Notes: generated from the letters alone by a model not told the origin. Positions 5,160-50,069 are shown, numbered from the stretch's first letter. The stretch is 64,000 nucleotides of DNA from an uncultured Bacteroidota bacterium (GCA_963771435.1 CAVYTF010000018.1:88217-152216), one strand, 5' to 3'. A program made the numbers and translations.

Positions 5160-5395
5160 TAAAGTTTCACTCAAAGTTTGTAAAGTTTGCCTCAAAAGCT
5201 GCAAAGTCAGGGACAAACTTTATAAAGAAAAAGATTTTTCTTGTAAAGAAAACGAAAAACCTTGTAAAGTTTTCGGGAAAAGCTGCAAAGTCAGAGGCAA
5301 ACTTTGTAAAGAAAACGGGAAATCTTATAAAGAAAATCTTTTTCTTTATAAAGAAAGGGAAAGACTTTATAAAGTTTGGGTGAAAAGCTACAAAG
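5160..5395. repeat. Degenerate tandem array with strict 21-bp register
   Basis: The pentamer YAAAG recurs at 5160, 5181, 5202, 5223, 5244, 5265, 5286, 5307, 5328, 5349, 5370 and 5391, which is 12 consecutive 21-bp steps. The motifs are CTTTGTAAAG/CTTTATAAAG and GCTGCAAAGTC. Confidence 0.9.
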
Positions 5396-5533
5396 TCTGC
5401 CCCGGGAGCTGCAAAACTGCCTTTTTGCCCCTTTGGGAGAAATTTTTTCTAAAAAAATCCACCTGCATATTGTTTAAATTTAAAAAGTTTTTTATTTTTG
5501 TTTTCATTAAATAACCCCCCAAAATTTAAAAAA

Positions 5534-6199
5534 ATGATAAGGCCGTCTCACTGCTCTTTAGCTTTTAAAGACCTGCCCATTGCTGCCAAAACCCTGTTTG
5601 GCCCCGGCGTTTATAACGGCATAGGCAACAACTCAAAAGTATTTGCAAACCCCACTGTGCAGCCTGCTGACCTGCAAGCGGCAAACGACGACCTGATATC
5701 TAAGGCACAGTTGGCGGCGGGTGGCGACCATGGCCTTGTGGCTGCCATGCACGACAGCGAAAACGCCTGGGAAGTTATATACGGCAGTGCGGCATTATTC
5801 GTGGATACAGTGGCACAAGGCACCGAAGCCACTATAAGGCTGGGAGGTTTTGAGCCAACTGATACTGAAATTCCTGATGTTACAAACCCTTTGGCAGCAA
5901 CAATTAAAGTATTAAAGGTGAATGCCGCATTGGGCAGTTTTCATGTAGAATTATTTTCAATGATGCATGTTGCCGGGTTCCTTTATATTGTTTCCACCAC
6001 TGCCGCTGTGCCTGTGTTTGTGAACAACCAATTTTTGTTGTCTGCAAACCCCACGGTGATAGCGATGATAGCAGACACGCACCGCAAAGTTGATTTTTAT
6101 AACCTGCCTGCCAGCCAAACTTTTTATTTAAGCATCGTGGCTTTTAACACAGCGGGCATGGGTGCGGTTACTCAGCCGGTGCTGATAAAAGTGCTGTAA
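5534..6199 (+). CDS. Hypothetical protein, C-terminal Ig/FN3-like beta region
   Basis: The ORF is open from TTG 5498, with the first ATG at 5534. It is GC-richer than the neighbouring cassettes and is followed by a hairpin terminator at about 6222-6255. Confidence 0.55.
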   Translation: MIRPSHCSLAFKDLPIAAKTLFGPGVYNGIGNNSKVFANPTVQPADLQAANDDLISKAQLAAGGDHGLVAAMHDSENAWEVIYGSAALFVDTVAQGTEATIRLGGFEPTDTEIPDVTNPLAATIKVLKVNAALGSFHVELFSMMHVAGFLYIVSTTAAVPVFVNNQFLLSANPTVIAMIADTHRKVDFYNLPASQTFYLSIVAFNTAGMGAVTQPVLIKVL

Positions 6200-6228
6200 G
6201 TTTTGAAAAGATATTTTTGAAAGCTGCT

Positions 6229-6274
6229 GGCTGAAAAGGCTGGCAGCTTTTTTTGTGGGGTATATTTGGTGGGG
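6229..6274 (+). repeat. Leader module L1 (terminator hairpin + T-run + TATATTTG -7 motif)
   Basis: GGCTGAAAAGGCTGGCAGCTTTTTTTGTGGGGTATATTTGG is duplicated at 6948. TATATTTG (6261-6268) matches the Bacteroidota TAnnTTTG -7 consensus and lies 19 nt before ATG 6288. Confidence 0.7.
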
Positions 6275-6287
6275 AAAGAAAGAAATT

Positions 6288-6911
6288 ATGAAACGATATT
6301 TATTATTATTTGCACTTTTAGTAATGAGTAATTGCATTACACACAATAAAGAGTATTTGAATGCTAAAACTATGATGTATCAAAATGTCTCGACAGTATC
6401 AAGTATTGATTTATATCAAGATGGAAATTTGAAGTGTTTAATTGATTCTGTAAAAGGAAAAGAATTTGGAAATCGGTTTTCATTTTATGAAAACTCATAC
6501 TTGTCAAGCTATTGCTTTATGATAGATTCTGCTCGTGCTTCATACATAGAAACATTTGATTCAGTTAGCCATGAAATTATCAGTGTAGAAGGAAATCCGA
6601 TTGTGTATAAAACTATTAATGCAGATAGTTACCATGACTCATTGTTTATTCAATATTTAATTACTACTTTTCCATATGACAACATTGAATTTCAAATTTC
6701 AGACAGTGGAAGAGAATTTAAAAGTATACCTATAAGCAATCCATCTGGTGAATATGTCAGGTTAAAATATTTAAAATCTATCAATTATTTTAAGAATACA
6801 AAATCTATCAGTCGTTTTTATGTAATAGCAAAATTTACGGGGAGATTGAAAGATACAAAAGAAATAAAAACCTATACTGATACTATTGATTTATCTAAAA
6901 GGATACAATAG
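6288..6911 (+). CDS. Hypothetical lipoprotein (cassette ORF)
   Basis: MKRYLLLFALLVMSNC is a lipobox-type leader. AT-rich by eye. It is followed directly by R4. Confidence 0.6.
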   Translation: MKRYLLLFALLVMSNCITHNKEYLNAKTMMYQNVSTVSSIDLYQDGNLKCLIDSVKGKEFGNRFSFYENSYLSSYCFMIDSARASYIETFDSVSHEIISVEGNPIVYKTINADSYHDSLFIQYLITTFPYDNIEFQISDSGREFKSIPISNPSGEYVRLKYLKSINYFKNTKSISRFYVIAKFTGRLKDTKEIKTYTDTIDLSKRIQ

Positions 6912-6913
6912 AA

Positions 6914-6938
6914 AACAGCATTCTTATAAATTTATTGG
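6914..6938 (+). repeat. Cassette-punctuating element, copy R4 (3' half)
   Basis: AACAGCATTCTTATAAATTTATTGG. Confidence 0.75.
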
Positions 6939-6947
6939 TTGGCTGTT

Positions 6948-6990
6948 GGCTGAAAAGGCTGGCGGCTTTTTTTGTGGGGTATATTTGGGG
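6948..6990 (+). repeat. Leader module L2 (duplicate of L1)
   Basis: GGCTGAAAAGGCTGGCGGCTTTTTTTGTGGGGTATATTTGGGG. TATATTTG lies at 6980-6987, 20 nt before ATG 7008. Confidence 0.7.
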
Positions 6991-7007
6991 GAAGAAAATA
7001 AATACTT

Positions 7008-7208
7008 ATGAAGATTATAGATGGAGGTAAAGAAATGTATGAAAAGGAAAAAACTTTAAAAAAAATTAAAGTAGATTTAGAAAATTGGACAACCTATTAT
7101 TCAGATTTAGAAACCGGCGAAAAATGGATAAAAGAATATCCCTTTCCTGAAATGCAAGCAGGTGGACCGCCTCAAATGCGATTACTTGAAAAATTTCCGT
7201 GGGAATAA
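7008..7208 (+). CDS. Small immunity-like protein (Imm27-like: GGxP motif + C-terminal Trp)
   Basis: 66-aa ORF ending ...EKWIKEYPFPEMQAGGPPQMRLLEKFPWE. The GGPP motif and penultimate Trp recall the polymorphic-toxin immunity family I remember as Imm27. Confidence 0.5.
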   Translation: MKIIDGGKEMYEKEKTLKKIKVDLENWTTYYSDLETGEKWIKEYPFPEMQAGGPPQMRLLEKFPWE

Positions 7209-7224
7209 TAAGACCATTTCCCCC

Positions 7225-7250
7225 CAATAAAATTCTTATAAATTCTATGG
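7225..7250 (+). repeat. Cassette-punctuating element, copy R5 (degenerate 3' half)
   Basis: CAATAAAATTCTTATAAATTCTATGG. It overlaps ATG 7247. Confidence 0.5.
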
Positions 7251-7609
7251 AAAAGTCTAATATAATTAAGGAAATAATCTCTATTCCTGCCCGGTTTTAT
7301 TCTGAAGGCAATATTTCATTTTATTCTTTGCTTAAAAAGACGGGATATTTTGAATTGTATAATCAAATTAGTGAGGTTGATATTTTTGAAATGCTTAAAC
7401 AAGATTTAGAGTGTATTACTCAATGGCTCAGTTGGTCAGAAGATAAGCGGGTTACTTATGGTTGGTATTTTAAAGAGAGCCTGAATGGAAACTATATCGT
7501 TGGTCATTTTCCTCCTAAAGAAGATTTTAAAACAATAGAATATTCGGATGTTTCGCAAGCGTGTTCCGTTTTCATTAAACGGGAAATTGAAGACATCAGA
7601 AAAAGTTAA
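7247..7609 (+). CDS. Hypothetical protein (cassette ORF)
   Basis: The ORF is open from GTG 7199, with ATG at 7247 (MEKSNIIKE...). It is 120 aa, AT-rich, and followed directly by R6. Confidence 0.55.
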   Translation: MEKSNIIKEIISIPARFYSEGNISFYSLLKKTGYFELYNQISEVDIFEMLKQDLECITQWLSWSEDKRVTYGWYFKESLNGNYIVGHFPPKEDFKTIEYSDVSQACSVFIKREIEDIRKS

Positions 7610-7660
7610 TTTCCGCCGCTCTTCCCTTCCTTCCCAACAGCATTCTTATAAATTTATTGG
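7610..7660 (+). repeat. 51-bp cassette-punctuating element, copy R6 (full)
   Basis: Same 51-mer as at 3848 and 4284. Confidence 0.9.
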
Positions 7661-7685
7661 TTGGGGGGAAGAGGACAAATAAAAA

Positions 7686-7994
7686 ATGAAACAAAGAATG
7701 AAATCCATTTTATCTATTCTCTTTATTTTATGGTTTTTAATTCCATATTCATTTTTATTTTATAGAAAATGGAATTTGCGAGTAAGGCTTTTATTTATAT
7801 CGTTATTTGAAATTCTCTTTTTATATCTCACAATAATTATTGTTCAAAATTTTAAAGATGATTTACTAAACGGCCCTGCTTTTTTTTATAATATACTTAT
7901 ATGGCCAAGTATTTTTTTAAACTTAGTTGTAATATTAATTATTTGGCTGATAAAAAGAATAAAATCTTTCTACCGAAAAGACACCAATAATTAG
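7686..7994 (+). CDS. Small integral membrane protein (cassette ORF)
   Basis: 102 aa with three hydrophobic segments (ILSILFILWFLIPYSFLFY, LLFISLFEILFLYLTIIIV, IWPSIFLNLVVILIIWLI). Confidence 0.5.
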   Translation: MKQRMKSILSILFILWFLIPYSFLFYRKWNLRVRLLFISLFEILFLYLTIIIVQNFKDDLLNGPAFFYNILIWPSIFLNLVVILIIWLIKRIKSFYRKDTNN

Positions 7995-8003
7995 ATTGTA
8001 TTT

Positions 8004-8037
8004 TTCCTTCCAAACATCATTCTTATAAATTTATTGG
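8004..8037 (+). repeat. Cassette-punctuating element, copy R7 (degenerate)
   Basis: TTCCTTCCAAACATCATTCTTATAAATTTATTGG. It overlaps the stop codon (8031-8033) of the minus-strand decarboxylase gene. Confidence 0.65.
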
Positions 8038-9574: not shown

Positions 9575-10193
9575 TTATTCGGCTTTTTCTTTGAGCAATT
9601 CTTTTATATCATCCTGCAGTTTTGATAGTTCATTTTTTTTCAACCCATCATAAACCTGTCCGCGTACCTGCCCTTTTTTATCCACCAATGCAAAGAATTG
9701 CGTGTGTAAAAACTGGTCATTGATATTTACAACAGCGTTTTTTGGATCATCAAGTAAATAGCTGTTTCGTGCAGCTTTGTAAAGGCTATCTTTTCTTCCC
9801 GTAAGGAAAACCCATTTGTCGGTATTTACTTTTAATAAGTTGGCATAATGTTTTAAAACAGGAGCGGAGTCTGTTCCCGGAATCAGAGGTGTGGGAAACG
9901 ATGATGAGGTCGGGCTCATCTTTAAAAGCTTCATATATCTTTTTCATGTTGTTGTTCATGCGCGGGCAAATGCCCTTGCAGGTAGTAAAAAAATAATTGA
10001 TCACGCAGACTTTGCCGAGCATATCTTTCTCCGTGAACGGCTTGCCATCCTGTGTAGTAAATGAGAAAGGCTGAACGGTGCTCAGTACGGGGAGTTTTGT
10101 CTTCCAGTTATCTGTACCTGCAAAAACAAAGGCAAGAAAAGAGGCGGTAAGCACGATAAAAAAAATAGAGTACCAAAGCAATTTCTTGTTCAT
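9575..10193 (-). pseudogene. SCO1/SenC copper-chaperone thioredoxin-fold protein, frameshifted as given
   Basis: The N-terminal ORF 9786..10193 carries a TM segment and the CxxxC motif (FTTCKGICP). The C-terminal ORF 9575..9934 continues ...DSAPVLKHYA.... The frames join near 9879-9885; removing 1 nt restores a ~205-aa protein. Confidence 0.8.
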
Positions 10194-11463: not shown

Positions 11464-13497
11464 ATGAAACAAAAACTGCTTGCATTGTCTGTCTTGCTGT
11501 CCTTTGCGGGAATATACTCCTGCAAAACGGGTAGCTCGGACAACTCTGAACAAAAATTTATTACTACCGCCAACATGGATTCCTCTGTGAAACCCGGCGA
11601 TGATTTCTTCATGTATGTGAACGGGAAATGGATAAAAAATGCCTTGATCCCGCCAACGGAAAGCGGCGTAGGCTCGTTCCTTGATGTGTATAACGTGACC
11701 AAAGGCCATGTGCACAGCATTCTTGACAGCGTTGCGAAAGGGGGCTTTGAAAAAGGCAGCATTGCACAGAAGGTTGGCGATTTCTATGCATCCGCAATGG
11801 ACTCGGCCGCTATCGAAAAACTTGGTTATGATCCAATAAAACCTCGTTTGCAACAGATCGCGGCATTTACGGACGCAAAAAGCGTTTTAGCATTTGAAGG
11901 GCAGATGCAAACTACCGGTTACCAATATATTGTTGCCTCTGGTATAGGTTCCGACCAGAAGAACAGCAATATGAACATTCTGAATACAGGGCAAGCAGGG
12001 CTTGGTTTGCCTGACAGGGATTATTATTTCAGGACAGACCCTGCAACCGTGGGCATACAGAACGCTTACAAGGCTTACATGAAAAAAACATTTATGATGC
12101 TTGGCGATGATTCTGTAACAGCAGCCAAAAAAGTTGCTGTTGTATATGCACTTGAAACGGAGATAGCAAAAAGCCACCGCACCAATGTTGAGCTTCGTGA
12201 CCCGCAGAGCAATTACAATAAAATGGCTGTTGCCGATATGGACAAAAAAGAACCAAATATTGCCTGGCCTGCACTTTTGAACGAAATGGGCATGAAGGCT
12301 GATTCGGTAAATGTGGGCCAACCTGCTTATTACACGAAATTAAACACATTGCTGAAGACAACACCCATCGATACATGGAAAGCCTATTATGAATTTCATG
12401 TAACGGATGACGCGGCACCAGCCTTAAGCAGTGCCTTCGTAAAAGCTCGTTTCGATTATCAGAAACTCCTGAGCGGACAAAAGGAAATGAGACCCCGTTG
12501 GGAAAGAATGTACCATGCAACGGATGCCAGCCTTGGCGACGCACTTGGTGAATTATATGTGAAAAGATATTTTACTGATGATGCAAAAAAGAGAATGCTT
12601 GACCTTGTGAATAACCTGCAAAAAGCTTTTGAAGCAAGGATAAACAAAGTGGACTGGATGAGCGACAGCACTAAAAAGGTGGCAATTGACAAATTGCACG
12701 GCTTCATTAAAAAGATAGGCTACACCGACAAATGGAGAGATTACAGCAAAGTTACAATCGATAAAAACTCTTATTTCGACAACATCGTCTCCTGCAATAA
12801 AAATGATTACCAGTATCAGTTAAGCAAACTCGGTAAACCTGTTGACAAAACAGAATGGGGCATGACACCTCCAACCATCAACGCTTATTACAATCCTTCT
12901 TTTAATGAAATAGTTTTCCCTGCTGGCATTCTGCAGTTTCCTTTCTTCGACCCCAACGCAGATGATGCTATCAACTACGGCGGCATTGGCATGGTGATAG
13001 GCCATGAAATGACACACGGCTTTGACGACCAGGGTAGCCAATATGATAAAGAAGGTAACCTAAAGAATTGGTGGAGCCATAACGACAGCCTGCAATTCGT
13101 TCAGCGTACTAAAAAGATAATTAACCAGTTTAACGGCTATACCATGCTGGACACAATGCACATCAACGGCGCATTGACCACAGGAGAAAACAGCGCAGAC
13201 CTTGGCGGTATCAACATTGCATATGATGCCTTCAAAATGACCAAAGAAGGCCAGGATACTACAAAAATCGATGGCTTCACGCCGGACCAGCGTTTCTTTA
13301 TTTCCTTCGCACAAGCATGGAGAACCAAACAAACGGATGAAAGCATTCGGTCACAAATGAATCAGGATCCACACTCACCGCCAATTTATCGCGTGAACGG
13401 CCCGCTTTCAAACTGTGACGCATTCTACACTGCATTCAATGTGCAGCCCGGCGATAAAATGTACAAGCCCGAGAGTGAAAGAGTAAAAATTTGGTAA
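11464..13497 (+). CDS. M13-family zinc metallopeptidase (PepO/endothelin-converting-enzyme-like), lipoprotein
   Basis: 677 aa with leader ...LLSFAGIYSC. Contains the HEMTHGFD zinc motif and NAYY, and the C-terminus ERVKIW is typical of M13. Confidence 0.9.
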   Translation: MKQKLLALSVLLSFAGIYSCKTGSSDNSEQKFITTANMDSSVKPGDDFFMYVNGKWIKNALIPPTESGVGSFLDVYNVTKGHVHSILDSVAKGGFEKGSIAQKVGDFYASAMDSAAIEKLGYDPIKPRLQQIAAFTDAKSVLAFEGQMQTTGYQYIVASGIGSDQKNSNMNILNTGQAGLGLPDRDYYFRTDPATVGIQNAYKAYMKKTFMMLGDDSVTAAKKVAVVYALETEIAKSHRTNVELRDPQSNYNKMAVADMDKKEPNIAWPALLNEMGMKADSVNVGQPAYYTKLNTLLKTTPIDTWKAYYEFHVTDDAAPALSSAFVKARFDYQKLLSGQKEMRPRWERMYHATDASLGDALGELYVKRYFTDDAKKRMLDLVNNLQKAFEARINKVDWMSDSTKKVAIDKLHGFIKKIGYTDKWRDYSKVTIDKNSYFDNIVSCNKNDYQYQLSKLGKPVDKTEWGMTPPTINAYYNPSFNEIVFPAGILQFPFFDPNADDAINYGGIGMVIGHEMTHGFDDQGSQYDKEGNLKNWWSHNDSLQFVQRTKKIINQFNGYTMLDTMHINGALTTGENSADLGGINIAYDAFKMTKEGQDTTKIDGFTPDQRFFISFAQAWRTKQTDESIRSQMNQDPHSPPIYRVNGPLSNCDAFYTAFNVQPGDKMYKPESERVKIW

Positions 13498-13524
13498 GAA
13501 TTTATAATTAATAATTTATAATTA

Positions 13525-13564
13525 AAAGAGGAAGCCTTCACACAATGTGAAGGCTTCCTCTTTT
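13525..13564. terminator. Bidirectional hairpin terminator between convergent genes
   Basis: AAAGAGGAAGCCTTCACA-ca-TGTGAAGGCTTCCTCTTTT, a perfect ~16-bp stem with A/T runs on both sides. Confidence 0.85.
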
Positions 13565-17016: not shown

Positions 17017-18462
17017 ATGAATGAAACCTCGCTAAATCCTGTTCGCATCCTTATCATTGATGATGATGAGGAAGACTTTTTTATCACCAGCGAATACATT
17101 AAAAACATTGACCAAGGGCATAAATTTATAGTCGAGTGGTGTTCGGAATATAAGGAGGCCCTTCATCTTATTTGTAAAGCTGCTCATCATATTTACTTTG
17201 TTGATTATCGCCTCGGCCCAAAAACCGGCCTTGACCTGATCTCTGACGCTGTAAAGAACAATTGCAACGAACCCTTTATACTTCTTACCGGCAAGGGGAG
17301 CAAGGAAATTGATATTAAAACAATGCAGGCAGGGGCGGTAGATTACCTGGTAAAAACTGAACTGAACACTGAAAAACTTGAACGGTGCATCCGTTACGCC
17401 CTTGAAAGGCACCGGTTCCTGCTGGCGCTAAAGGCCAATGAACAAAAGTTTCGCAATATTTTTGAAAGGTCGAAGGACGCTGTTTTTATAACTGATGAAA
17501 ACCTTGTGTTCAAAGATGTGAACGAGGCTACATGCAGGCTGCTTCAGTCAAGCAAAGACGAACTGCTGCAAACAAGCTTGTATGATATGCTTGCAGATGA
17601 GGAGGATCATGCATTAATTGAGCGGTCTTTGGCAGAAAAAGGGGAGGTTGACGATATAGAAGTGGAGTTTTTAACCAAAGACAAGGACAATATTGGCATA
17701 TTGACCATCACGCGGCAAGCAGATCCGGGCAGAGAGGTATTCATGCAGGGCATCATTCACGACATCACCCATCTTAAAAAAGCAGAACGCGCCACGCTGC
17801 AGGCCGAAAAGCTAAAAGCTGCCGGGCGCTTTGTGCAAACCCTTGCCCACGAGGTGCGCAACCCGCTGAACAACATCAATCTTGCCCTGGAACAGTTAAA
17901 TGCAGAAATAAAAGACGAAAACAGCGAAGTATTTTTGGAAATAATAACACGCAACAGCAACCGCATCTCCTCTTTAATTACCGAGCTGCTCAATACCAGC
18001 CGCCCCATAGACACGATGCTGGAAAAAACCTCTTTGCAAAACGTGCTGCAGCAGAGCGTCACGACTGCTATGGACAGGATAACGCTGAACCGGATCCACC
18101 TGCAAACGCATTACGGCAACGACGTGGCATATATAATGGGTGACATTTCCAAACTCAAGATCGCATTTTTAAATATCATCATCAACGCAATAGAAGCCAT
18201 GGAGCCGGACACAGGAATTTTAGCTATTAGCATTGAATCAGATGCACTTCAGCATAAAGTATTACTAAGCGATAACGGTATCGGCATAAGCGAAGAAAAC
18301 CTGACGCACCTTTTTGAACCTTATTTCACCTCAAAGAGAAACGGCATGGGCCTTGGCCTTGCCTCCACCCTAAACATCCTGCAGTCCCATAAAGCCTTGG
18401 TGGAAGTAGATTCCAAAGCGGGAAAAGGGACTACTTTTACTATTTTGTTTCAAAAAGCATAA
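17017..18462 (+). CDS. Hybrid sensor: N-terminal receiver + PAS + histidine kinase (no TM segment)
   Basis: Receiver domain (ILIIDDDEEDF...), PAS domain, H-box LAHEVRNPLNNI, and N/G boxes (DNGIGI, GMGLGL). The ORF is open from TTG 17008, with ATG at 17017. Confidence 0.85.
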   Translation: MNETSLNPVRILIIDDDEEDFFITSEYIKNIDQGHKFIVEWCSEYKEALHLICKAAHHIYFVDYRLGPKTGLDLISDAVKNNCNEPFILLTGKGSKEIDIKTMQAGAVDYLVKTELNTEKLERCIRYALERHRFLLALKANEQKFRNIFERSKDAVFITDENLVFKDVNEATCRLLQSSKDELLQTSLYDMLADEEDHALIERSLAEKGEVDDIEVEFLTKDKDNIGILTITRQADPGREVFMQGIIHDITHLKKAERATLQAEKLKAAGRFVQTLAHEVRNPLNNINLALEQLNAEIKDENSEVFLEIITRNSNRISSLITELLNTSRPIDTMLEKTSLQNVLQQSVTTAMDRITLNRIHLQTHYGNDVAYIMGDISKLKIAFLNIIINAIEAMEPDTGILAISIESDALQHKVLLSDNGIGISEENLTHLFEPYFTSKRNGMGLGLASTLNILQSHKALVEVDSKAGKGTTFTILFQKA

Positions 18463-18500
18463 TACAAAATGGCTTGATCTCATATAAAAGCCTGAAAAAT

Positions 18501-18880
18501 GATCGTGTAACTACGAAAGATGATCGATCATGTTTGAAGGATGATCGTGAATGTTTGAAGGATGATCGTGAATGTTTTAAGGATGATCGTGAATGTTTGA
18601 AGGGTTATCGTGAATGATTGAAGGATGATCGTGAAAGTATGAAGGTTTAATATTAAAGTATGAAGGTTTAATATTAAAGTATGAAGGATCAATATTAAAG
18701 TATGAAGGTTTAATATTAAAGTATGAAGGTTTAATATTAAAGTATGAAGGTTTAATATTAAAGTATGAAGGTTTAATATTAAAGTATGAAGGTTTAATAT
18801 TAAAGTATGAAGGATCAATATTAAAGTATGAAGGTTTAATATTAAAGTATGAAGGATTAATATTAAAGTATGAAGGATTT
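18501..18880. repeat. 21-bp tandem array (two core families in one continuous register)
   Basis: GATGATCGTGAATGTTTGAAG occurs about 7 times, then GTATGAAGGTTTAATATTAAA about 11 times. GAAGG recurs at 18536 + 21n for n = 0-16. Confidence 0.95.
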
Positions 18881-18923
18881 GCGCAAGGATTAGAAAGATA
18901 AAGGTCAATTTATATTGGCCTTA

Positions 18924-23896: not shown

Positions 23897-24040
23897 AATT
23901 TCTTTTTTATGCTACAAATATATGTATGAAATAATAAGAAAAGGCTCCTAAAACATTCACAACTCACCACGCACCTCCTCACCGTTCACTCCTAACATCT
24001 CTCCATTCTCAATTCTCCATTCTCAATTGACCCTCACTCC

Positions 24041-28193: not shown

Positions 28194-28235
28194 GGCTTTT
28201 AATTTTAAAACAAGGTAAGGGATTTTTATTAACGA

Positions 28236-28268
28236 AATAAAAAAAGCCACTCCTTTCAGAATGGCTTT
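28236..28268 (-). terminator. Rho-independent terminator of paralog 2
   Basis: The minus strand reads AAAGCCA-ttctgaaaggag-TGGCTTT followed by a T-run, immediately after the stop of 28303..30819. Confidence 0.7.
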
Positions 28269-28302
28269 CAATTCTCAATTCTCAATTTTCAATTATAACT
28301 TC

Positions 28303-30819: not shown

Positions 30820-30862
30820 GGCTTTTAATTTTTGAACAAGGTAGGGGATTTTTATTAACGAA

Positions 30863-30894
30863 ATAAAAAAAGCCACCCTTTCAGAATGGCTTTT
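30863..30894 (-). terminator. Rho-independent terminator of paralog 3
   Basis: AAAAGCCA-ttctgaaaggg-TGGCTTTT plus a T-run on the minus strand. Confidence 0.7.
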
Positions 30895-30927
30895 AATTCT
30901 CAATTCTCAATTTTCAATTATAACTTC

Positions 30928-33648: not shown

Positions 33649-33693
33649 GGCTTTTAATTTTTGAACAAGGTAGGGGATTTTTATTAACGAAAT

Positions 33694-33723
33694 AAAAAAA
33701 GCCATCCTTTCAGAATGGCTTTC
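33694..33723 (-). terminator. Rho-independent terminator of paralog 4
   Basis: AAAGCCAT-tctgaaagg-ATGGCTTT plus T7 on the minus strand. Confidence 0.75.
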
Positions 33724-33749
33724 AATTCTCAATTTTCAATTATAACTTC

Positions 33750-36005
33750 TCAATTTGCCTTCACCATCTTCTTCGTATCTATCAGCTTCCCATCAATAAG
33801 CAAAGAATACTGGTACATTCCTGCCGCCATCTCGCTTCCGCTGATAACCTGCTTCCCGTATCCGCTGTTAGCAAGCGCAAACGTCTTCAATGTATGCCCC
33901 GAAATATCCACCACCATCAACTGTGCACTATGAAACCCTTGTGGAATATAATAACTGATATACGAACTCCCGTTAAAAGGATTAGGCACATTCTGGTCAA
34001 GCTTTGGTTGGTCAGAGATATTGCTGACTGCTGACTGCATTCCTGAAGAAAAACTATTGCAGCACTGGCTCATTGCCGATTGCATCTGTGCAACAGTGCT
34101 CTTAAGATCATTTAACTGCTGTTGAAGGGTATCGATCTTTGCATCTTTCACCTCATTTATAGCAGATAACTCCTGCACTGCCTTCACCAGCGGCACCACA
34201 AACTCAGCATACCTCAAACCATACAGATCCTTACTGTTCTTTGCAGCATCAACACCACTAAAGTTATAGCTTACTTTTTGCGCTGCTTTCTCCACATCCT
34301 GTGCTATAAAGCCTGTATAAACAATTTGCTCTTTAGCACTGCGCGCAGCCAATTGTTCCTGTGTTGGCTGTATGGTATTGCCTTTAGCATCTTTATGAAC
34401 AGGCGGTTCTACTATCTTGTCCGCAGCATCAAGGTTAAGATTATAAGTAACTGGTTGCAATTGGTTAATAAATGTCAATCCCGGCACATTTTGTAGTATA
34501 TTCTTCTTCACTCTGCCATCACTTATATTGGTCCAGTTTGCATAACCGCCGATACTGGTGATCTGATTATCCCCAATGCGTACCTGGTAACTTGCTGTGG
34601 CAAGTGCATCGTAGCCAAAAGCGCCGGCATCAGTATAACTGGTATCATTTACATTAGCATTATACCCATCGCCGGTGTTATTACTGCCAGAAGTGTTGTA
34701 ATTAAGCGCGCTACCGCCATTTGCAGTGTTATAAATCCCCCTGGTGTTGAATTCAAGGGCGCCCTCTCCATGGGCAGTATTGTAGCCTCCCGTGGTGTTG
34801 AACTGGAGAGCCCCATTTCCATTGGCAGTATTTGAGTTCCCTGTAGTATTATCATAAAGGGCCTCGTTCCCGTTTGCTGTGTTATAATTCCCCGTGCTAT
34901 TGTAACCAAGAGAGTAGGCCCCTGTTGCGGTATTGTAACCTCCCGTGGTGTTCGTGCCCAGGGAAGACACCCCATTTGCAGTATTTTGAGTTCCTGTGGT
35001 GTTGTAATATAGGGCCTCGTTCCCGTTTGCTGTGTTATTACTTCCCGTAGTGTTGTATGCGAGGGCAGACTCCCCGTTGGCAGTGTTTTCGTTTCCTGTA
35101 GTGTTGTTAACAAGAGCCAGGTGTCCATTTGCAGTGTTATAATTACCCGTGGTATTAGACAAAAGCGCAAAATATCCGTTTCCGGTATTGTAACTCCCCG
35201 TGGTGTTATAATAAAGGGCGCTATACCCATCTGCAGTGTTATCATTTCCCGTGGTGTTGGAATACAGCGATTGATAAGCGGTAGCTGCATTATAACTCCC
35301 CGTGGTATTGAAATAAAGGGTCTGGTAACCGGTAGCTGCATTATAACTCCCCGTTGTGTTGCTATAAAGGGCCTTGTTCCCGTTTGCAGTATTTTGATAG
35401 CCTGTAGTATTAAAATAAAGAGATTGATAACCGGTAGCCACATTCCCTGTACCTGTTGTATTTGAATACAGCGCCTCATACCCCACTGCCGTAAGATTGC
35501 TCACCGTGCTGCTATACAGCGTACCGTACCCAACAGCAGTATTGTTGCTGCCGGTCACATTCGTATAAAGGGACTGACCGCCATTTGCAAGGTTATAACT
35601 GCCCGTCGTGTTATAATTAAGCGTTTGGCGCCCGATCCCGGTATTGTATTGCCCTGTCGTGTTGTATTGCAATGTTGTAGCTCCGTTCGCAACATTAAAC
35701 GAACCCGTAAGGCTAATTCCCCCTAATGCAGCATATCCAAGTGCGGTATTTTCTATCGGTGGGTTACTGCCTGAAGCGTTTTGCAGGCATAGGAACCCGA
35801 TACCCGTATTATAATGGCTGCCTGTATAAGTACCCTCAACAATACCCCCTTTCCTGCCGTCAAGAATAAAGTTTAATGGAAAAGCATTGGTAGTGCCCAA
35901 AACATTACCGCTAACAGCTGCATTGCCTGCCAGGCTCCAGCTTTGTGCATGTGCAGCCTGTATCATAATTAGAAACACCGCTGTAAAGAAGATGTTTTTT
36001 TTCAT
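33750..36005 (-). CDS. T9SS-sorted fibre protein, paralog 4 (shortest, 751 aa)
   Basis: MKKNIFFTAVFLIMIQAAHA/QSW. Same N-terminal module, repeats, S74 signature (SDGRVKKNILQNVPGLTFINQLQPVTYNLN), coiled coil and CTD. Confidence 0.85.
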   Translation of the reverse strand: MKKNIFFTAVFLIMIQAAHAQSWSLAGNAAVSGNVLGTTNAFPLNFILDGRKGGIVEGTYTGSHYNTGIGFLCLQNASGSNPPIENTALGYAALGGISLTGSFNVANGATTLQYNTTGQYNTGIGRQTLNYNTTGSYNLANGGQSLYTNVTGSNNTAVGYGTLYSSTVSNLTAVGYEALYSNTTGTGNVATGYQSLYFNTTGYQNTANGNKALYSNTTGSYNAATGYQTLYFNTTGSYNAATAYQSLYSNTTGNDNTADGYSALYYNTTGSYNTGNGYFALLSNTTGNYNTANGHLALVNNTTGNENTANGESALAYNTTGSNNTANGNEALYYNTTGTQNTANGVSSLGTNTTGGYNTATGAYSLGYNSTGNYNTANGNEALYDNTTGNSNTANGNGALQFNTTGGYNTAHGEGALEFNTRGIYNTANGGSALNYNTSGSNNTGDGYNANVNDTSYTDAGAFGYDALATASYQVRIGDNQITSIGGYANWTNISDGRVKKNILQNVPGLTFINQLQPVTYNLNLDAADKIVEPPVHKDAKGNTIQPTQEQLAARSAKEQIVYTGFIAQDVEKAAQKVSYNFSGVDAAKNSKDLYGLRYAEFVVPLVKAVQELSAINEVKDAKIDTLQQQLNDLKSTVAQMQSAMSQCCNSFSSGMQSAVSNISDQPKLDQNVPNPFNGSSYISYYIPQGFHSAQLMVVDISGHTLKTFALANSGYGKQVISGSEMAAGMYQYSLLIDGKLIDTKKMVKAN

Positions 36006-36176
36006 ATTTAATATTTTTTATAATGGGGAATACAGGATAAGAGAAACATTGCTTTTTTGCAATGCCTTAACAATACTAAGCGCTTTATTACTATGAAACA
36101 AATTTTCTTCTTCGCAATATCTCATAACATAGCGTTCGCATAGGAAGGGCATCGCAGTTAATTCAACCATTAACCA

Positions 36177-36420
36177 TTTTCCTATCGAAGGGTGGGACAC
36201 CCATCGAAATTTTCCTATCGATGGGTGTCCCCACCCATCGAAATTTCCTATCGGTGGCAATTGAGCCTAACCGATCAACCATTCAACTAAATATAATTGA
36301 ACGAGCTTTCCTATCGGTGGGTGTCCCACCCATCGAAATGATTTTTTTGCTTTCTGCGCTTTAGAGCCAATTGAGTCTAACCGGTCAACCATTCAACTAA
36401 ATATAATTGAACGAGCTTTG
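36177..36420. repeat. Cluster of 34-bp palindromic units plus a ~54-bp direct repeat
   Basis: TTCCTATCGATGGGTG-tcc-CACCCATCGAAAT-type hairpin units lie at about 36177, 36211, 36245 (interrupted) and 36307. The direct repeat CAATTGAG(C/T)CTAACCG(A/G)TCAACCATTCAACTAAATATAATTGAACGAGCTTT lies at 36259-36310 and 36368-36419. Confidence 0.85.
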
Positions 36421-36439
36421 TCGCAACACGAACCGCAAT

Positions 36440-36901
36440 ATGCTGCAACAACTCATCAGGCGCCAGGTCATAAAAAGCGACATCAAGACCATTTGGTCTT
36501 TTATCAGTTCCCCAAAAAACCTCGCTGCGATAACACCACCAAACATCGGCTTTAGCATACTCAACCAGGCAAACCCCTTAGAAAAAGTGTACGCAGGGCA
36601 GCTTATCCAGTACCATATTTCCCCGCTGCTGAACATTAAGCTATATTGGGTAACCGAAATAACCCACGTCAGAGAAAACGATTATTTTATTGATGAGCAG
36701 CGCTTTGGCCCCTATAAATTTTGGCACCACCAGCATTTTTTAAAACAAGTCAACGGAGGAGTAGAAATGACCGATATAGTACATTACAAACCCCCCTTCG
36801 GCCCAATAGGAACAATTGCAAACAACCTCTTCATCAAAAAACAACTAAAACACATATTTGATTATCGTTATGAAAAGATAGAGGAACTCTTTAATAAATA
36901 A
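36440..36901 (+). CDS. SRPBCC-superfamily (START/polyketide-cyclase-like) ligand-binding protein
   Basis: ATG at 36440; the ORF is open from TTG 36407. Contains ...IWSFISSPKNLAAITPP...YWVTEITHV...FIDEQRFGPYKFWHHQHFL..., typical of this family. Confidence 0.65.
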   Translation: MLQQLIRRQVIKSDIKTIWSFISSPKNLAAITPPNIGFSILNQANPLEKVYAGQLIQYHISPLLNIKLYWVTEITHVRENDYFIDEQRFGPYKFWHHQHFLKQVNGGVEMTDIVHYKPPFGPIGTIANNLFIKKQLKHIFDYRYEKIEELFNK

Positions 36902-37027: not shown

Positions 37028-37126
37028 CTTATAGAGACAATATAGAGACCTTATAGAGACTTTATAGAGACCTTACTCCCACTCAAAGCCCACTCAATGT
37101 CCACCTAAAGCCCACTCAAAGCTATA
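37028..37126. repeat. 11-bp-register tandem array (9 units)
   Basis: The units are CTTATAGAGAC, AATATAGAGAC, CTTATAGAGAC, TTTATAGAGAC, CTTACTCCCAC, TCAAAGCCCAC, TCAATGTCCAC, CTAAAGCCCAC, TCAAAGCTATA. Each is exactly 11 bp. Confidence 0.9.
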
Positions 37127-37327
37127 CTTAATCCATAGCAACGCCCTCTCCCCCTCATTTTCACCCCTTGAACAACTGGATCGGCCAATACTTCAAAAAC
37201 ATTCCCTACTTATTTAGCCTTTTTATTTAATTTCATCCTTTCAGATAATGATTGCTGCCATCAAACCAATTTAATTAATATCGTATGGATTCTCTATGCT
37301 AATAACTCTCTGCAGCAATTCAAAACC

Positions 37328-39909: not shown

Positions 39910-40632
39910 TTATCCCACCTTCACCGGCGGTGGTGCAGGTGCCACTTTATCCTTTCCCCGCGCCCGCAGGTTATCCGTTTTGCGCACCTGTTCATAGCCC
40001 GCAACAAAACTATTTTCCGCATCGTCATCATCGTCCGCCATCCCTTCTATCAGTTTATCCAGCAGTTCCAGCTTTGTATGCGTGTCAGCAAAATAAGGTT
40101 TAAACCAAGCCGTGCTCGCGCTGCGCACCCCCCGAACCTCCTTTATAGCAGGTATTTCCGGCGTCACCAGGTCGATCGCATCCTGCGCCGCACCCACGCC
40201 CGTCGTTGTAATTTTATAATCAGGGTTTGGTGCAGGCAGCGTCGCCAGCGCAGCATTCGCCTGTGTCACAATATTATTGCAAACCAGCAAAGCAGCCTCT
40301 TCCCCAAGCTCTTCCAGCGCGCTTCTTGAATAGTGAACCGCATCCCGCATGATAATATTGCCCACTCCGCTCGCATAGTTATACACCCTCACGCCCAGCT
40401 TATAAGCCAGGTCAAGCATCGTTTCATAATCAATATTTTTCTGGTCGGTCACCCCCGTTGTGCCATTTGCCTGCTGCACAGTGGCCGCCGCATCAATATT
40501 TCCTTTTGAAGTAGTAAAAGCTTTAACTCCTGCGCTCACTACCGAGTTCCCGCCCCACACAAGTGAGTTGTCGTTCAGATATTTGATCGTCGCATTCAGC
40601 ATCGCCAGCGTATTTAGTTGAGGCCTTGTCAT
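39910..40632 (-). CDS. Hypothetical protein (acidic DDDDD patch, Pro-rich C-terminus)
   Basis: 240-aa ORF with good coding-like composition. I recognise no family. Its 5' end faces the 42-bp minisatellite. Confidence 0.55.
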   Translation of the reverse strand: MTRPQLNTLAMLNATIKYLNDNSLVWGGNSVVSAGVKAFTTSKGNIDAAATVQQANGTTGVTDQKNIDYETMLDLAYKLGVRVYNYASGVGNIIMRDAVHYSRSALEELGEEAALLVCNNIVTQANAALATLPAPNPDYKITTTGVGAAQDAIDLVTPEIPAIKEVRGVRSASTAWFKPYFADTHTKLELLDKLIEGMADDDDDAENSFVAGYEQVRKTDNLRARGKDKVAPAPPPVKVG

Positions 40633-40738
40633 GGTTATTCTATTTAAAAACGAAAGTAATTATATAAAACAAACTTAAAAAATATTTATTCGCTCTCTCA
40701 AAATCGTTTTTTAACTGCGGAGACACGTAAAAGATATG

Positions 40739-41695
40739 CAGAGATAGCTGCATGGTCATAAGAGATGCCTGCATGATGCTCAGAGATAGCTGCAAGGCAC
40801 TAAGAGATGCTTGCATGACGTGCAGAGCAGACTACATGGCAGTAAGAGACAACTAAATGATGCAAAGAGCTGACTACATGGCAGTAAGAGACGCCTAAAT
40901 GATGCTCAGAGAAGATTTTGGGGTTATAAAAGACACCTCCATCATGCCCAAAGAAGAATTTGGGGCTATAAGAGACACCTGCCTGATGTGCACAGAAGAA
41001 TTTGGGGTTATAAGAGACGCCTGCCTGATGTACGCAGAAGAATTTGGGGCTATAAGAGACACCTGCCTGATGTGCACAGAAGAATTTGGGGTTATAAGAG
41101 ACGCCTGCCTGATGTACGCAGAAGAATTTGGGGTTATAAGAGACGCCTGCCTGGTGTACGCAGAAGATTTTGAGGTTATAAAAGACACCTCCATCATGCC
41201 CAAAGAAGATTTTGGGGTTATAAGAGACACCTGCCTGGTGTACGCAGAAGAATTTGGGGTTATAAAAGACGCCTGCCTGATGTACGCAGAAGAATTTGGG
41301 GTTATAAGAGACACCTGCCTGGTGTACGCAGAAGAATTTGGGGTTATAAGAGACGCCTGCCTAATGTACGCAGAAGAATTTGGGGTAATAAGAGACGCCT
41401 GCCTGGTGTACGCAGAAGAATTTGGGGCTATAAGAGACACCTGCCTGATGTACGCAGAAGAATTTGGGGTTATAAGAGACGCCTGCCTAATGTACGCAGA
41501 AGAATTTGGGGTTATAAGAGACGCCTGCCTAATGTACGCAGAAGAATTTGGGGCTATAAGAGACACCTGCCTGATGTGCACAGAAGAATTTGGGGTTATA
41601 AGAGACGCTTATGAGATGCAAAGAGATAGCTTTATGTTAATAAGAAACACCTTTATCATAATAAGAGATGATTTTGGGCGATGCAGAAAAGCCTC
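40739..41695. repeat. 42-bp minisatellite (~23 units, ~0.96 kb), decaying at both ends
   Basis: The core is CAGAAGAATTTGGGG(T/C)TATAAGAGAC(G/A)CCTGCCTGATGT(A/G)C(G/A). CAGAAG starts at 41035 and 41077 in the core, at exact 42-bp spacing. The flank units (CAGAGATAGCTGCATGG...) keep the same 42-bp period. Confidence 0.95.
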
Positions 41696-41732
41696 CCATA
41701 ACCTTATAGGCAACCGATCAAAGCACAGCCAA

Positions 41733-45019: not shown

Positions 45020-45020
45020 G

Positions 45021-46439: not shown

Positions 46440-46452
46440 AATTTCAAACATT

Positions 46453-46908: not shown

Positions 46909-47556
46909 TTGAATACCCTCGCAGCGTATCTTCATGCCATGCACGAAGTTTACAACCAATTCGTCAGCGAATTGCAGCAAACCACCTTGCTTGAATACAT
47001 TGGCGTCATTGCCGGCATTGCAAGCGTTTGGTTTTCAAGAAAAGAAAATATCCTCGTCTATCCCGTGGGGTTAATAAACACCATCATTTATATTTATATC
47101 AGCATCAAAGGAAGCCTCTTTGGCGAAGCAAGCGTTAATCTTTATTACACCATCATGAGCATATACGGATGGTTTTTATGGGCAAAAAAAGACAACAAAA
47201 AACAAACAGTCTTGCACATAACTTACAGCACTAGGAAAGAATGGATCTTTCAATTGCTCTTTTTCGCAGCATTTTATGTGGCCATTTTCTTCGCTCTCTC
47301 CTTTTTGAAAACCGCGTTTGAATCAAACACCATCCCCTGGGCAGACGCGTTTGCAAGCGCCACAGCCTATACCGGCATGTGGCTCATGGCAAAGAAAAAA
47401 ATAGAAAGCTGGTATTGGTGGATTGCCACAAACATTGTATCTATCCCCCTTTATTTTGTAAAACACTACGCCTTCACAAGCGTTCAGTACATTGTTTTTC
47501 TCATCCTCGCTTTTATGGGATTAGTTTCATGGATGAAAAAAGTAAAACTTAAATGA
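46909..47556 (+). CDS. pnuC: Nicotinamide riboside transporter PnuC
   Basis: 215 aa and multi-TM. Contains ...WFSRKENILVYPVGLINTIIYIYI... and ...ESWYWWIATNIVSIPLYF.... TTG start as in the ORF track. Confidence 0.8.
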   Translation: MNTLAAYLHAMHEVYNQFVSELQQTTLLEYIGVIAGIASVWFSRKENILVYPVGLINTIIYIYISIKGSLFGEASVNLYYTIMSIYGWFLWAKKDNKKQTVLHITYSTRKEWIFQLLFFAAFYVAIFFALSFLKTAFESNTIPWADAFASATAYTGMWLMAKKKIESWYWWIATNIVSIPLYFVKHYAFTSVQYIVFLILAFMGLVSWMKKVKLK

Positions 47557-48102
47557 GCAATATAAAAAAAATAGTCGTCATCGGGCCAGAAAGCACAGGC
47601 AAAAGCACCCTCTGTATACAACTTGCAGAGCATTACAAAACCCGCTGGTGCCCTGAGTTTGCAAGAGAATATCTTTTAAAAAACGGAATTAATTATGCTT
47701 ATGAAGATCTGCTCACCATCGCCAAAGGCCAACTCTCCCTCGAAAGGATCAACCAACCATCAACCAACAACCACCAACCATCAACTTTTATTCATTGACA
47801 CCGACCTCTACGTCATGAAAGTTTGGTGCGAATTCGTTTTCAACCAATGCCATCAATACATCTTAAATGAGATTGCGCAAAGAAAATACGACCTCTATCT
47901 CTTCTGCAATATTGACCTGCCCTGGATAAAAGACGAACTCCGTGAGTATCCCGATGAAGCCCCCCGCAAGGAACTCTATAACATCTATAAAGACATTCTC
48001 ATAAACCAAAACACCCCTTGGGTGGAAATAAGCGGCAACTATGAAGACCGTTTAAACAAAGCCATCGCGGCTGTAGAAAAATATTGTAGTAATATAAATT
48101 AA
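47553..48102 (+). pseudogene. NadR-type AAA ATPase / ribosylnicotinamide-kinase-like protein, frameshifted within a CAAC-rich stutter
   Basis: ORF 47553..47798 carries Walker A (VVIGPESTGKST). ORF 47695..48102 continues LLFIDTDLYVMKVWCEF.... The frames must join inside 47748-47785; removing 1 nt gives about 182 aa. Confidence 0.75.
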
Positions 48103-49213
48103 TTATTCAGCATCAGCGGCATCACCAGCATCAGCAATTCTTCCCCTTCATTCTGTTCCATCGGCTTCAAGATCCCCGCCTTCGTTGGTGTTGACAATTC
48201 TATCTTCACCTCATCGCCCTCTGCCGCGCTCAGCATCTCAATCAAAAACTTAGCGTTAAAAGCAATTTGCAGGTCTTCCCCATCATATTGGCAACCCATC
48301 GTTTCCTTCCCTTCAAAACTAAAATCAACATCCTGCGCAGTTAGTTGCAGCTCGCTTCCGCTTATGGATAACGCCACTTGGTTCGTGCTCTTATTGCTAA
48401 ACACGCTCAGTCGCCGCAACGCGTTCTGAAAATCCATTTTATTCACCACTAATTTATACGGGTTATCCGTCGGTATCACCACTTTATAGTCAGGGAAACG
48501 CGCATCGATCAATCGGCAAATAAGCTGTGTTGCCCCATGCTTCACAAATAAGTGATTACTATTATAGCTTATCGTCAGTTCATCTTCATTCGCCGGCAGC
48601 GCGCTTTTCAAAAGGTTCAGCGGCTTTTTCGGCACAATAAAACTATCCACCTTTGGGCATTTCACATTCATTTTCTTCAGCCGCACCAGCCTGTGCGCAT
48701 CCGTCGCCACAAACTGCGCCGAGTCCTTCGCCAGCTCAAAAAACACCCGGTCATCGCCGGCCTCAGGTCATCCGTGCTCACCGCAAACAGCGTCTTCGTT
48801 ACCGCGTCAAGCAGGTCGCCGCTCGTCATCTCAAAACTGTTCGTCACGTCAGCCACCGGCTCTTTCGGAAAATTATCCGGGTTTTCCCCCATCACTTTAT
48901 ACTTCCCGTTACTGCTCGTTATCTCGATCCCAAAATTCTTGTCAATACTAAATGTCAGCGGCTGCTCAGAAATATTCTTCAGCGAGTCCATCAAAATTTT
49001 CGCAGGCATACACACCCTCCCGTCCGCCTTGCTTTCCACGTCCATCTGCACCTTCATCACCGTTTCCAGGTCCGTCGCCACAATGTTTAATTTCTTATCA
49101 GTTATTTCAAATAAAAAATCTTCCAGTATCGGCAATACTGTGTTCGCGTTAATAACGCCGCTTATTTGCTGCAGGTGCTTTAGTAATGAAGCAGAGGATA
49201 CTATAAATTTCAT
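48099..49213 (-). pseudogene. dnaN: DNA polymerase III beta sliding clamp, frameshifted as given
   Basis: The N-terminal part MKFIVSSASLLKHLQQISGVI...DDLRPAMTG (49213 down to about 48750) continues in another frame as FFELAKDSAQFVATDAHRLV... to 48099. Adding 1 nt near 48744-48749 (CCC/A6 context) gives a 371-aa clamp. Confidence 0.85.
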
Positions 49214-49373
49214 GATCGTGAATGATTTTTTGCGATGCAACAAACCTACTGCAAAATGTTAAGTTTGGCAACACGCAATTTTATTTGCAGTTTTATCCTC
49301 CAAAAATGTGAATTACTTGTGGTAAAATTCTCCTCAATCCCCAATCATCAAATCAGACATCATCAAATCAGCA

Positions 49374-49829
49374 ATGAATTCTCCTGAGCAAAAAATAAAA
49401 CACTACTGCCGTTACCAGGAAAGGAGTCACTCCGAGGTAAAAGAAAAGCTCTATAGTTTGGGTTTAAGGAAAGATATGGTCGAAGAATTTATCGCGAAAT
49501 TGATAGAAGAAGATTTGTTGAACGAAGAACGCTTCGCCCGTCAGTTTGCAAGAGGAAAATTTTCATTAAAAAATTGGGGCAAAATAAAGATCAGGTATGA
49601 GCTCAGGCAAAGAAAAGTAAGCCTATATAATATAAACCTCGGTTTAGAAGAAATTGATGAAAAAAAATACAAAGCAACCATACAAAAACTCGCTTCGCAA
49701 AAATGGAAACTCTTAAAAAGGGAATCACTCCCCAACAGGCAGGCAAAAACAACCCGTTACCTCCTCCAAAAAGGCTTCGAAAGCAATTTAATACAACAGG
49801 TGGTCAAAGAAATCGCCGTTATCCAATAG
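49374..49829 (+). CDS. recX: Regulatory protein RecX
   Basis: 151 aa. Contains YCRYQERSHSEVKEKL...DLLNEERFARQFARGKF, typical RecX three-helix repeats. Confidence 0.8.
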   Translation: MNSPEQKIKHYCRYQERSHSEVKEKLYSLGLRKDMVEEFIAKLIEEDLLNEERFARQFARGKFSLKNWGKIKIRYELRQRKVSLYNINLGLEEIDEKKYKATIQKLASQKWKLLKRESLPNRQAKTTRYLLQKGFESNLIQQVVKEIAVIQ

Positions 49830-49840
49830 CTTAAATTTAA

Positions 49841-50069
49841 TTTAGTACTCAAAAACAAGTATTTAATATTCAAAAACATATATTTAACAATTAAAAACAG
49901 CTATTTAATAAGCTAAAACGACTATTTAATAATCAAAATCAAGTATTTAATAATCAAAATCAAATATTTAATATTTAAAAACGGATATTTAATAATCAAA
50001 AACAATCATTTAATAAAGTAAATCAAGTATTTAACAATCAAAAACGACTATTTAACAATCAAAAACAGC
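49841..50069. repeat. 21-bp tandem array (10 in-phase units + 1 partial)
   Basis: Units start at 49860 + 21n. Each is TATTTAAYAATCAAAAAC plus a 3-nt variable tail (ata, agc, gac, aag, aaa, gga, aat, aag, gac, agc). Confidence 0.95.

Follow-up and report, generated by a model that had tools for sequence, protein, structure and literature searches.

Tandem arrays that keep a helical period ahead of the same genes while their sequence changes suggest an undescribed kind of gene-control element in Chitinophagaceae

Several bacterial DNA-binding systems space their sites by whole turns of the helix. At the Bordetella fha and ptx promoters, dimers of phosphorylated BvgA (BvgA~P) are centred each 22 bp (i.e., two turns) on one face of the DNA (PMC7250471); in the F-plasmid partition site sopC, 12 units of 43 bp (four turns) again present one face (PMC3177203); and LytTR sites consist of direct repeats separated by 11–13 bp (a 21–22-bp period) located ~10 bp upstream of the promoter (PMC6193735). 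Bacteroidota are further known for heptamer simple-sequence repeats (TAACTGA type), which are intergenic, multi-copy and of unexplained function (PMC4679880). Here we report on four tandem-repeat arrays (A1–A4) in a 64,000-nucleotide stretch of DNA (hereafter “the window”) from an uncultured Bacteroidota bacterium (GCA_963771435.1, CAVYTF010000018.1:88217-152216), each of which repeats at 21 or 42 bp. While the principle of helically phased site arrays is already known, long chromosomal arrays that adjoin promoters, and whose period is conserved while their sequence turns over, are new: our literature search found no published description of such arrays in Bacteroidota, which bears out the view in the initial annotation of this stretch that no described element class fits.

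A1–A4 are non-coding, span 225–966 bp and hold an exact 21- or 42-bp register free of insertions and deletions (indels), as seen with Tandem Repeats Finder and in fixed-register print-outs, and their autocorrelation has its maximum at lag 21 or 42 (identity 0.59–0.87 vs. medians of 0.24–0.37). No indel occurs over ~1.85 kb of arrays, though the units of A1 and A4 are just 55–75% alike. Within A2 and A3, the unit type even switches without a phase break: A2 combines GAAGGATGATCGTGAATGTTT and GAAGGTTTAATATTAAAGTAT units in a single phase with 13 of 21 positions identical, and the two unit types of A3 match at ~28 of 42 positions; judging by this resemblance, the two types within each array probably share an ancestry from which they have diverged. 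The 42-bp unit of A3 itself consists of two diverged 21-mers, whose AGAGA on the plus strand reads TCTCT in the orientation of the orphan gene that follows. In A1, the core is YTTTRYAAAG (often the palindrome CTTTATAAAG), the other ~11 bp of the unit are variable, and an 84-bp higher-order repeat is present. Units of different arrays show no significant similarity (119 circular comparisons, minimum p 0.03), and a scan of the window found each core motif only inside its own array, i.e., the cores are neither regulon-wide sites nor comparable to repetitive extragenic palindromic (REP) sequences and bacterial interspersed mosaic elements (BIMEs), in which one unit sequence recurs at many loci. 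Both the exact register and the mutual unrelatedness of the four arrays had been proposed from the sequence beforehand and are upheld here. Nor are the arrays an assembly artefact, as an independent short-read assembly (ERR11523676, with contigs matching the window at 99.9–100%) reproduces A4 exactly and in full—though contigs end inside A1 and A3—and homologous arrays are present in other samples.

The period preference extends to independent relatives. We surveyed 160 loci of related Chitinophagaceae (2.57 Mb) and defined periods of 10–11, 21–22, 31–33 and 41–44 bp as “helical.” All seven multi-copy arrays (at least four copies) with units of at least 10 bp belong to this set (periods of 11, 11, 11, 21, 21, 41 and 42 bp) vs. 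only 28 of the 247 duplications with fewer than three copies, whose periods spread broadly over 10–60 bp with peaks at 12, 13, 15 and 18 bp (Fisher p = 5e-7). The excess at helical multiples that the initial annotation had anticipated is thus found in relatives, and the preference for one, two or four turns characterizes the family as a whole, not just the window. As the low-copy duplications have no period bias, a filter must act on expansion or persistence rather than on the initial duplication, and random slippage alone—judged insufficient from the outset—does not account for the bias. Specifically, the 41-bp array (at the metagenomic locus L133) fits helical turns and is a multiple of neither 3 nor 7. 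Shorter arrays with at least four copies have units of 7 bp (41 arrays), 8 bp (seven) or 9 bp (a few), and a 14-bp array (at L016) is built from 7-bp units and was counted among the heptamers; otherwise, the 2.57 Mb hold no multi-copy array at 12–20, 22–40 or 43–100 bp, the next repeats being coding repeats of 246–276 bp.

The window is unusually rich in such arrays, with at least six multi-copy arrays in 64 kb (two with an 11-bp period besides the four of 21/42 bp), whereas the relatives have four 21/41/42-bp arrays per 2.57 Mb. L133 carries three arrays within 19 kb (9 bp x4.4, 21 bp x12.4 and 41 bp x7.3; 950-2220 and 17206-17575), its 21-bp array lying within a 1.27-kb gene-free gap between convergent genes. 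Given these three arrays, array-rich genomes may be a recurring state within Chitinophagaceae. As to the 11-bp register also claimed for the window, it is clear at 37029-37127, where two unit types form nine units in one continuous register, and weak at 61309-61385, where the consensus resembles the CCCACTCAAWG units at 37078. Spacings of this order occur in OmpR/PhoB direct repeats, with a centre-to-centre distance of 10–11 bp, and in the partition site parC, with 10 units of 11 bp. A supposed 11- and 21-bp “stutter” at 47748-47785, on the contrary, is a 7-bp coding repeat in a nadR-like gene.

Arrays are also kept ahead of the same genes. A1 and A3 precede two orphan genes (hyp221 and hyp240, respectively), and the arrays found before homologues of these genes end about 95–136 bp ahead of the ATG (Table 1). 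With such arrays occurring at ~0.16% of upstream regions, finding them at four of four homologues would have a chance probability of p ~6e-12, a rough estimate; a search of the 160 loci turned up no further hyp240 or hyp221 relatives. The closest hyp240 locus, L164, is collinear with the window at 85% from the gene through its promoter and into promoter-proximal A3 (40739-40912), a part that is thus old and common to both. Distal A3, where one 42-bp unit has expanded x16.6, is specific to the window lineage, and unit number and type differ between the two loci. The far-side neighbour differs as well (an isocitrate/isopropylmalate dehydrogenase-like gene in L164 vs. acetyl-CoA synthetase in the window), which indicates that the array belongs to, and travels with, the 5′ region of the orphan gene. 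At the hyp221 loci, units of A1 and L173 are only 37% alike, i.e., at random level, while the genes themselves are 81% identical in DNA.

Across homologues, the period, the approximate array size, the spacing to the gene and a short core all persist. TCTC[T/G] is common to A3, L164 and L165, with the 8-mer GCTATCTC found in the oldest, promoter-proximal A3 units and in units of L164 and L165, and CTTTT/AAAAG dyads are common to A1, L173 and L174. Conserved cores combined with replaced unit sequence before homologous genes fit arrays of protein-binding sites, and the retention of arrays before the same genes while their sequence changes suggests, on comparative grounds, an undescribed kind of gene-control element. 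Whereas the usual picture of a bacterial promoter includes only a few operator sites, arrays of 250–1000 bp with an exact two-turn period are here kept across species. If true, this would be a bacterial case of selection on repeat period, not repeat sequence, as usually discussed for eukaryotic satellites and plasmid centromeres. Array copy number could then serve as a “rheostat” of gene expression, and the arrays provide a testable handle on the DNA-binding or architectural proteins of Bacteroidota and an explanation for the interruption of short-read assemblies of these genomes at certain promoters.

In the window, the initial annotation placed three of the four arrays some 100–140 bp upstream of gene starts, and this stands for A1 (126 bp from array end to ATG), A3 (106 bp) and A4 (106–114 bp) but is no general rule, as A2, the 21-bp array of L133 and an 11-bp array at L114 lie between convergent genes. 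A2 is flanked by a hybrid histidine kinase gene (+) and a receiver-only response-regulator gene (−), both of which point their 3′ ends at it, A3 separates the acetyl-CoA synthetase stop codon from the start of hyp240, and A4 begins 11 bp past the recX stop codon, upstream of an iron-containing alcohol dehydrogenase (Fe-ADH, KdnB-like) gene with its ATG at 50182. The last degenerate unit of A3 abuts the −33 element of the promoter-like motif there, in a region conserved in L164.

Table 1. Arrays, orphan genes and promoter-like motifs of the window, and arrays upstream of orphan-gene homologues in relatives (PEP, phosphoenolpyruvate).
Feature	Position	Strand	Make-up	Context
Array A1	5155-5428		12-13 units x 21 bp	between divergent orphan genes
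Array A2	18494-18892		19 units x 21 bp; GAAGG in each unit	
Array A3	40739-41704		23 units x 42 bp = 46 x 21 bp; AGAGA each 21 bp	
Array A4	49840-50075		10-11 units x 21 bp; unit TATTTAAYAATCAAAAACNNN	
11-bp arrays	37029-37127		TTATAGAGACN x4, then CCCACTCAAWG x4-5	~160-200 bp upstream of PEP carboxylase gene
Weak 11-bp array	61309-61385		TCCCACYNAAN, ~7 units	78 bp upstream of Fe-S protein gene
hyp221 orphan gene	5534-6199	+	helical N-terminal half, FN3-like C-terminal half; no Pfam match	
hyp240 orphan gene	39910-40632	-	~225-aa all-helical protein family; no Pfam match	
Bacteroidota-type promoter-like motif	5470-5500	+	TTG-N19-TATTTTTG; regex scan, consensus match only	between A1 and hyp221
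Promoter-like motif	40671-40702	-	TTTG-N21-TAAGTTTG; regex scan, consensus match only	between A3 and hyp240
Array at L164			~22 units x 21 bp anchored on TCTCT, single 1-bp deletion	hyp240 homologue (86% protein identity); 121 bp to ATG
Array at L165			11.5 units x 21 bp, 42-bp higher order, TTTTGCYWTCTCGGCATCGCA	hyp240 homologue (52% protein identity); 95 bp to ATG
Array at L173			12-13 units x 21 bp, perfect register, 42-/84-bp higher orders like A1	hyp221 homologue (79% protein identity); 117 bp to ATG
Array at L174			~9 units, spacings 19-22 bp	hyp221 homologue (36% protein identity); 103 bp to ATG

Each of the described systems shares part of this architecture. BvgA arrays, like the present ones, run upstream from the −35 element with individual sites that vary in sequence, the BvgA sites being weak (PMC7250471), but they comprise three to six sites that are not true tandem repeats and are served by a known regulator, whereas here 10–46 near-tandem units are found. 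The likeness to sopC lies in the long tandem direct-repeat array, the four-turn unit and the short binding motif within a longer unit, with copy numbers of 3–17 among sopC and related partition sites (PMC3177203); sopC, however, is plasmid-borne beside sopAB, while the arrays here are chromosomal, beside orphan-gene promoters and without par genes nearby. In LytTR systems, the repeat sequence differs between paralogous systems and the geometry is constant (PMC6193735), yet each site consists of just two repeats, palindromic cores occur in some of the present arrays, and the window yielded no gene of LytTR or OmpR type. More generally, the spacing agrees with the 21–22 or 10–11 bp of response-regulator sites, but such sites have 2 (rarely up to 4) repeats just upstream of the −35 element, while the units here number 10–46 and only A3 abuts a −33-like element. 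The heptamer repeats abound in the same genomes as the arrays but have a 7-bp unit, often abut the start codon and are not helically phased (PMC4679880), in contrast to the basic 21-bp period here.

Our preferred reading, to which we give a little less than an even chance, is that the arrays are phased lattices of putative protein-binding sites, lying on one helical face next to promoters, in which selection keeps the period and slippage renews the units; we infer both protein binding and an effect on transcription. Each unit presents a short conserved core, and the 21-bp spacing sets all cores on the same face of the helix, where dimers or oligomerizing proteins could bind side by side and cooperate over 200–1000 bp. 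A1 and A3, placed directly upstream of the Bacteroidota-type promoters of two orphan gene families, would probably set promoter activity. Two turns would be the shortest whole-turn spacing with room for a dimer, one turn would suit head-to-tail monomers and four turns larger complexes, which would account for the periods without a common sequence. The cores differ (TCTCT for hyp240, CTTTT/AAAAG dyads for hyp221), and different sequence-specific factors would probably share one binding geometry—resembling that of response-regulator dimers each 22 bp or of LytTR-type direct repeats 21–22 bp apart—so that unrelated sequences would come to share one period. Units would be gained, lost and homogenized via slippage or unequal exchange, with selection removing the variants that break the period.

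Several observations weigh against this reading. The cooperative protein arrays envisaged in the initial annotation gain from the conservation of A1 and A3, with their cores, before homologous genes, but Pfam scans of the window identified no binding protein, and no regulator gene adjoins any array. Known transcription-factor sites have 2–6 units, vs. 10–46 here, the core motifs are short (4–8 bp), and the A/T-tract half-sites that they share could be a matter of DNA shape instead of base readout. Breaks in the register do occur, namely local spacings of 19–22 bp in L174 and the 1-bp deletion in L164, and the commonest repeats of the family are the 7- and 8-bp arrays, whose periods do not match 10.5 bp or its multiples. 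A2, L133-21 (the 21-bp array of that locus) and the 11-bp array of L114 have no promoter to serve. Finally, A4 cannot be needed for the Fe-ADH gene, because relatives with a downstream gene 96% (L167), 88% and 86% (L168 and L169) identical lack it; in the latter two, recX and the downstream gene lie ~36 bp apart or overlap, and L167 lacks recX as well as an A4 equivalent. A4 is thus recent and dispensable.

Among the alternatives, the one that fares best dispenses with a dedicated protein: phased units would sum small bends into curved or easily wrapped DNA (e.g., upstream curved activators or plectoneme pins), leaving the sequence free to drift, which would cover both unrelated sequences with one period and rapid unit turnover. 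Under a Bolshoy-Trifonov wedge model, six of 13 array segments (A1, 11.3 degrees per turn; A4, 11.5; L153, 14.2; L173, 15.6; distal L164, 14.1; L165, 13.7) exceed all 126 background windows (maximum 10.5) in predicted curvature and fall within the top 0–20% of column-permuted controls, although the outcome of the two dinucleotide wedge models is model-dependent, being weaker under the De Santis parameter set. For four segments, on the contrary (A2, L133-21, and the proximal parts of A3 and L164), the predicted path is straighter than in their controls. Intrinsically curved DNA was one of the possibilities raised initially; with about half of the arrays predicted to be very curved and others straighter than controls, predicted curvature is not a property that they share. 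Mere shape, moreover, does not need cores such as GCTATCTC to be kept across genes just 52% identical, and we consider DNA mechanics an unlikely explanation, if one to be taken seriously.

Rather unlikely, too, is that the arrays are functionless minisatellites, i.e., slippage-prone arrays that arise at random and survive where harmless, with whole-turn units tolerated as neighbouring sites stay in phase. The recent and dispensable A4, the lineage-specific expansion of the distal A3 block, and the variation of copy number and unit type between close relatives are all as this explanation would have it, and tandem repeats are in general overrepresented in the intergenic regions of prokaryotes (PMC12418385). 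Yet the arrays between convergent genes (A2 and L133-21) have no phase constraint and nonetheless the same period, arrays persist at a constant 95–136 bp from the ATG before homologues down to 36–52% identity, and the unbiased periods of low-copy duplications point to a filter on expansion or persistence.

An origin from the abundant 7-bp repeats of the family, as higher-order units (21 = 3 x 7 and 42 = 6 x 7), seems quite improbable as a general account. Among relatives, no multi-copy repeat is commoner than the heptamer arrays, some of which have higher-order periods of 14, 21 or 35 bp, and lag-7/lag-14 identity is raised in A2 (0.47 vs. a median of 0.32) and A4 (0.43 vs. 0.37), which makes heptamer ancestry plausible for these two arrays. 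A1 and A3, however, lack any lag-7 signal, and such ancestry is not plausible for them, 7 does not divide the periods of the 11- and 41-bp arrays, a basic period of 28 or 35 bp is absent among the multi-copy arrays (the sole 14-bp one being that made of 7-bp units), and the existence of 8-bp arrays shows that 7 is no strict ruler.

It is very improbable that the arrays act as RNA (a protein sponge or a structured untranslated region) or encode heptad-repeat peptides (21 bp = 7 codons). Each of A2, A3 and A4 does begin 11–35 bp past the stop codon of a gene read in the same direction, and no clear terminator intervenes; open frames extend across A1, A2 and A3, and the units of A2 contain GAAGGAUGA, which resembles a CsrA site. 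But fold z-scores are inconsistent among arrays (−13.8 to +3), an Rfam scan matched none of the arrays and found just two tRNAs, variable columns have no 3-bp pattern, with substitutions mostly non-synonymous, neither the 11- nor the 41-bp period is divisible by 3, and promoter-like motifs lie downstream of A1 and A3.

Integrated plasmid- or phage-type iterons or partition centromeres (sopC/parC-like) are scarcely credible: whole-turn direct repeats are present, with a period and copy number close to those of sopC and of 22-bp iterons (PMC3177203), but a scan of 57 window open reading frame (ORF) translations found no rep, parA, parB or parR gene, the context is one of housekeeping genes (ATP synthase operon, dnaN, recX, PEP carboxylase, acetyl-CoA synthetase and gcvH), the flanking orphan genes have no PHROG matches, a search of viral contigs gave no hyp221 relative, and there is neither a DnaA-box cluster nor a GC-skew switch. 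A replication origin was likewise discarded, as DnaA boxes occur at chance level (17 matches vs. 18.8 expected) and the skew does not switch despite the nearby dnaN, and so were sigma-54 promoters or enhancer sites, whose matches are at chance level, with the hits within A1 lacking the GG doublet.

Returning to phased protein-binding sites, a bolder version, which we regard as doubtful, would be a Chitinophagaceae-wide, undescribed class of “phase-ruled” cis-elements, i.e., satellite-like arrays of 10–46 units in which only the helical period and a short core are conserved. Such arrays would be read through their helical phase, not their full sequence, by an architectural protein or a family of paralogous proteins, whose long, one-faced filaments would switch orphan genes, and the process that generates these repeats would yield the abundant 7- and 8-bp arrays as a further product.

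The window comes from the chromosome of an undescribed soil or freshwater Chitinophagaceae bacterium, whose acetyl-CoA synthetase has a best identity of 81% in genome and in metagenome collections. A positional link between A3 and the 3′ end of the acetyl-CoA synthetase gene was considered and dropped, as most relatives have ordinary terminators there and synteny is unconserved on that side. No paralogy was found among the genes flanking the arrays. The hyp240 protein has a confident, all-helical AlphaFold model (predicted local distance difference test score, pLDDT, of 94) and belongs to a family of 249 related protein clusters; it has neither a fold match nor a sequence match in the PDB, and its candidacy as a DNA-binding protein was dropped on these grounds. 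A1 is located in a low-GC island (4000-8000; 33.5% GC vs. 41% for the window) that also holds orphan genes and an Imm27 immunity-protein gene and was probably acquired horizontally.

Several housekeeping genes are split into two overlapping ORFs (atpA, 53301-54879; dnaN, 48099-49243; SCO1-like, 9575-10193; nadR-like, 47554-48102), most likely by residual single-base indel errors of the assembly. Four gaps in 6.3 kb separate a short-read contig (L001) from the window, with the array registers intact regardless.

Other repeats are plentiful. Arrays of 7 bp with many different sequences occur in the window (28266-28309, 30891-30934, 33722-33755, 23950-24060 and 13495-13525) and in relatives (e.g., L007 269-367, L016 9804-9952, L029 9498-9585 and L057 3574-3641), often paired as complementary heptamers a few tens of bp apart that could form long hairpins, and 8-bp arrays occur at L078 and L081. 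TCAATTC-type arrays of the window occupy the ~30-bp gaps between four tandem paralogous genes (25605-36005, minus strand; 751–934 aa) made of 51-bp (17-aa) coding repeats. Both paralogues scanned (888 and 751 aa) have a Peptidase_S74 (endosialidase chaperone) domain, and the family thus looks like tail-fibre-like surface proteins. At 36170-36420, a palindrome-bearing 33-bp unit (TCGATGGGTG..CACCCATCGA) is repeated x2.4 at 36176 and occurs again at 36307; together with a duplicated ~105-bp block, it lies upstream of an ORF at 36407-36901 and looks like an operator-type element unrelated to the 21-bp class. A small defence-like cluster at 57766-60740 encodes an Abi-like protein, an HNH endonuclease and two PIN-domain proteins.

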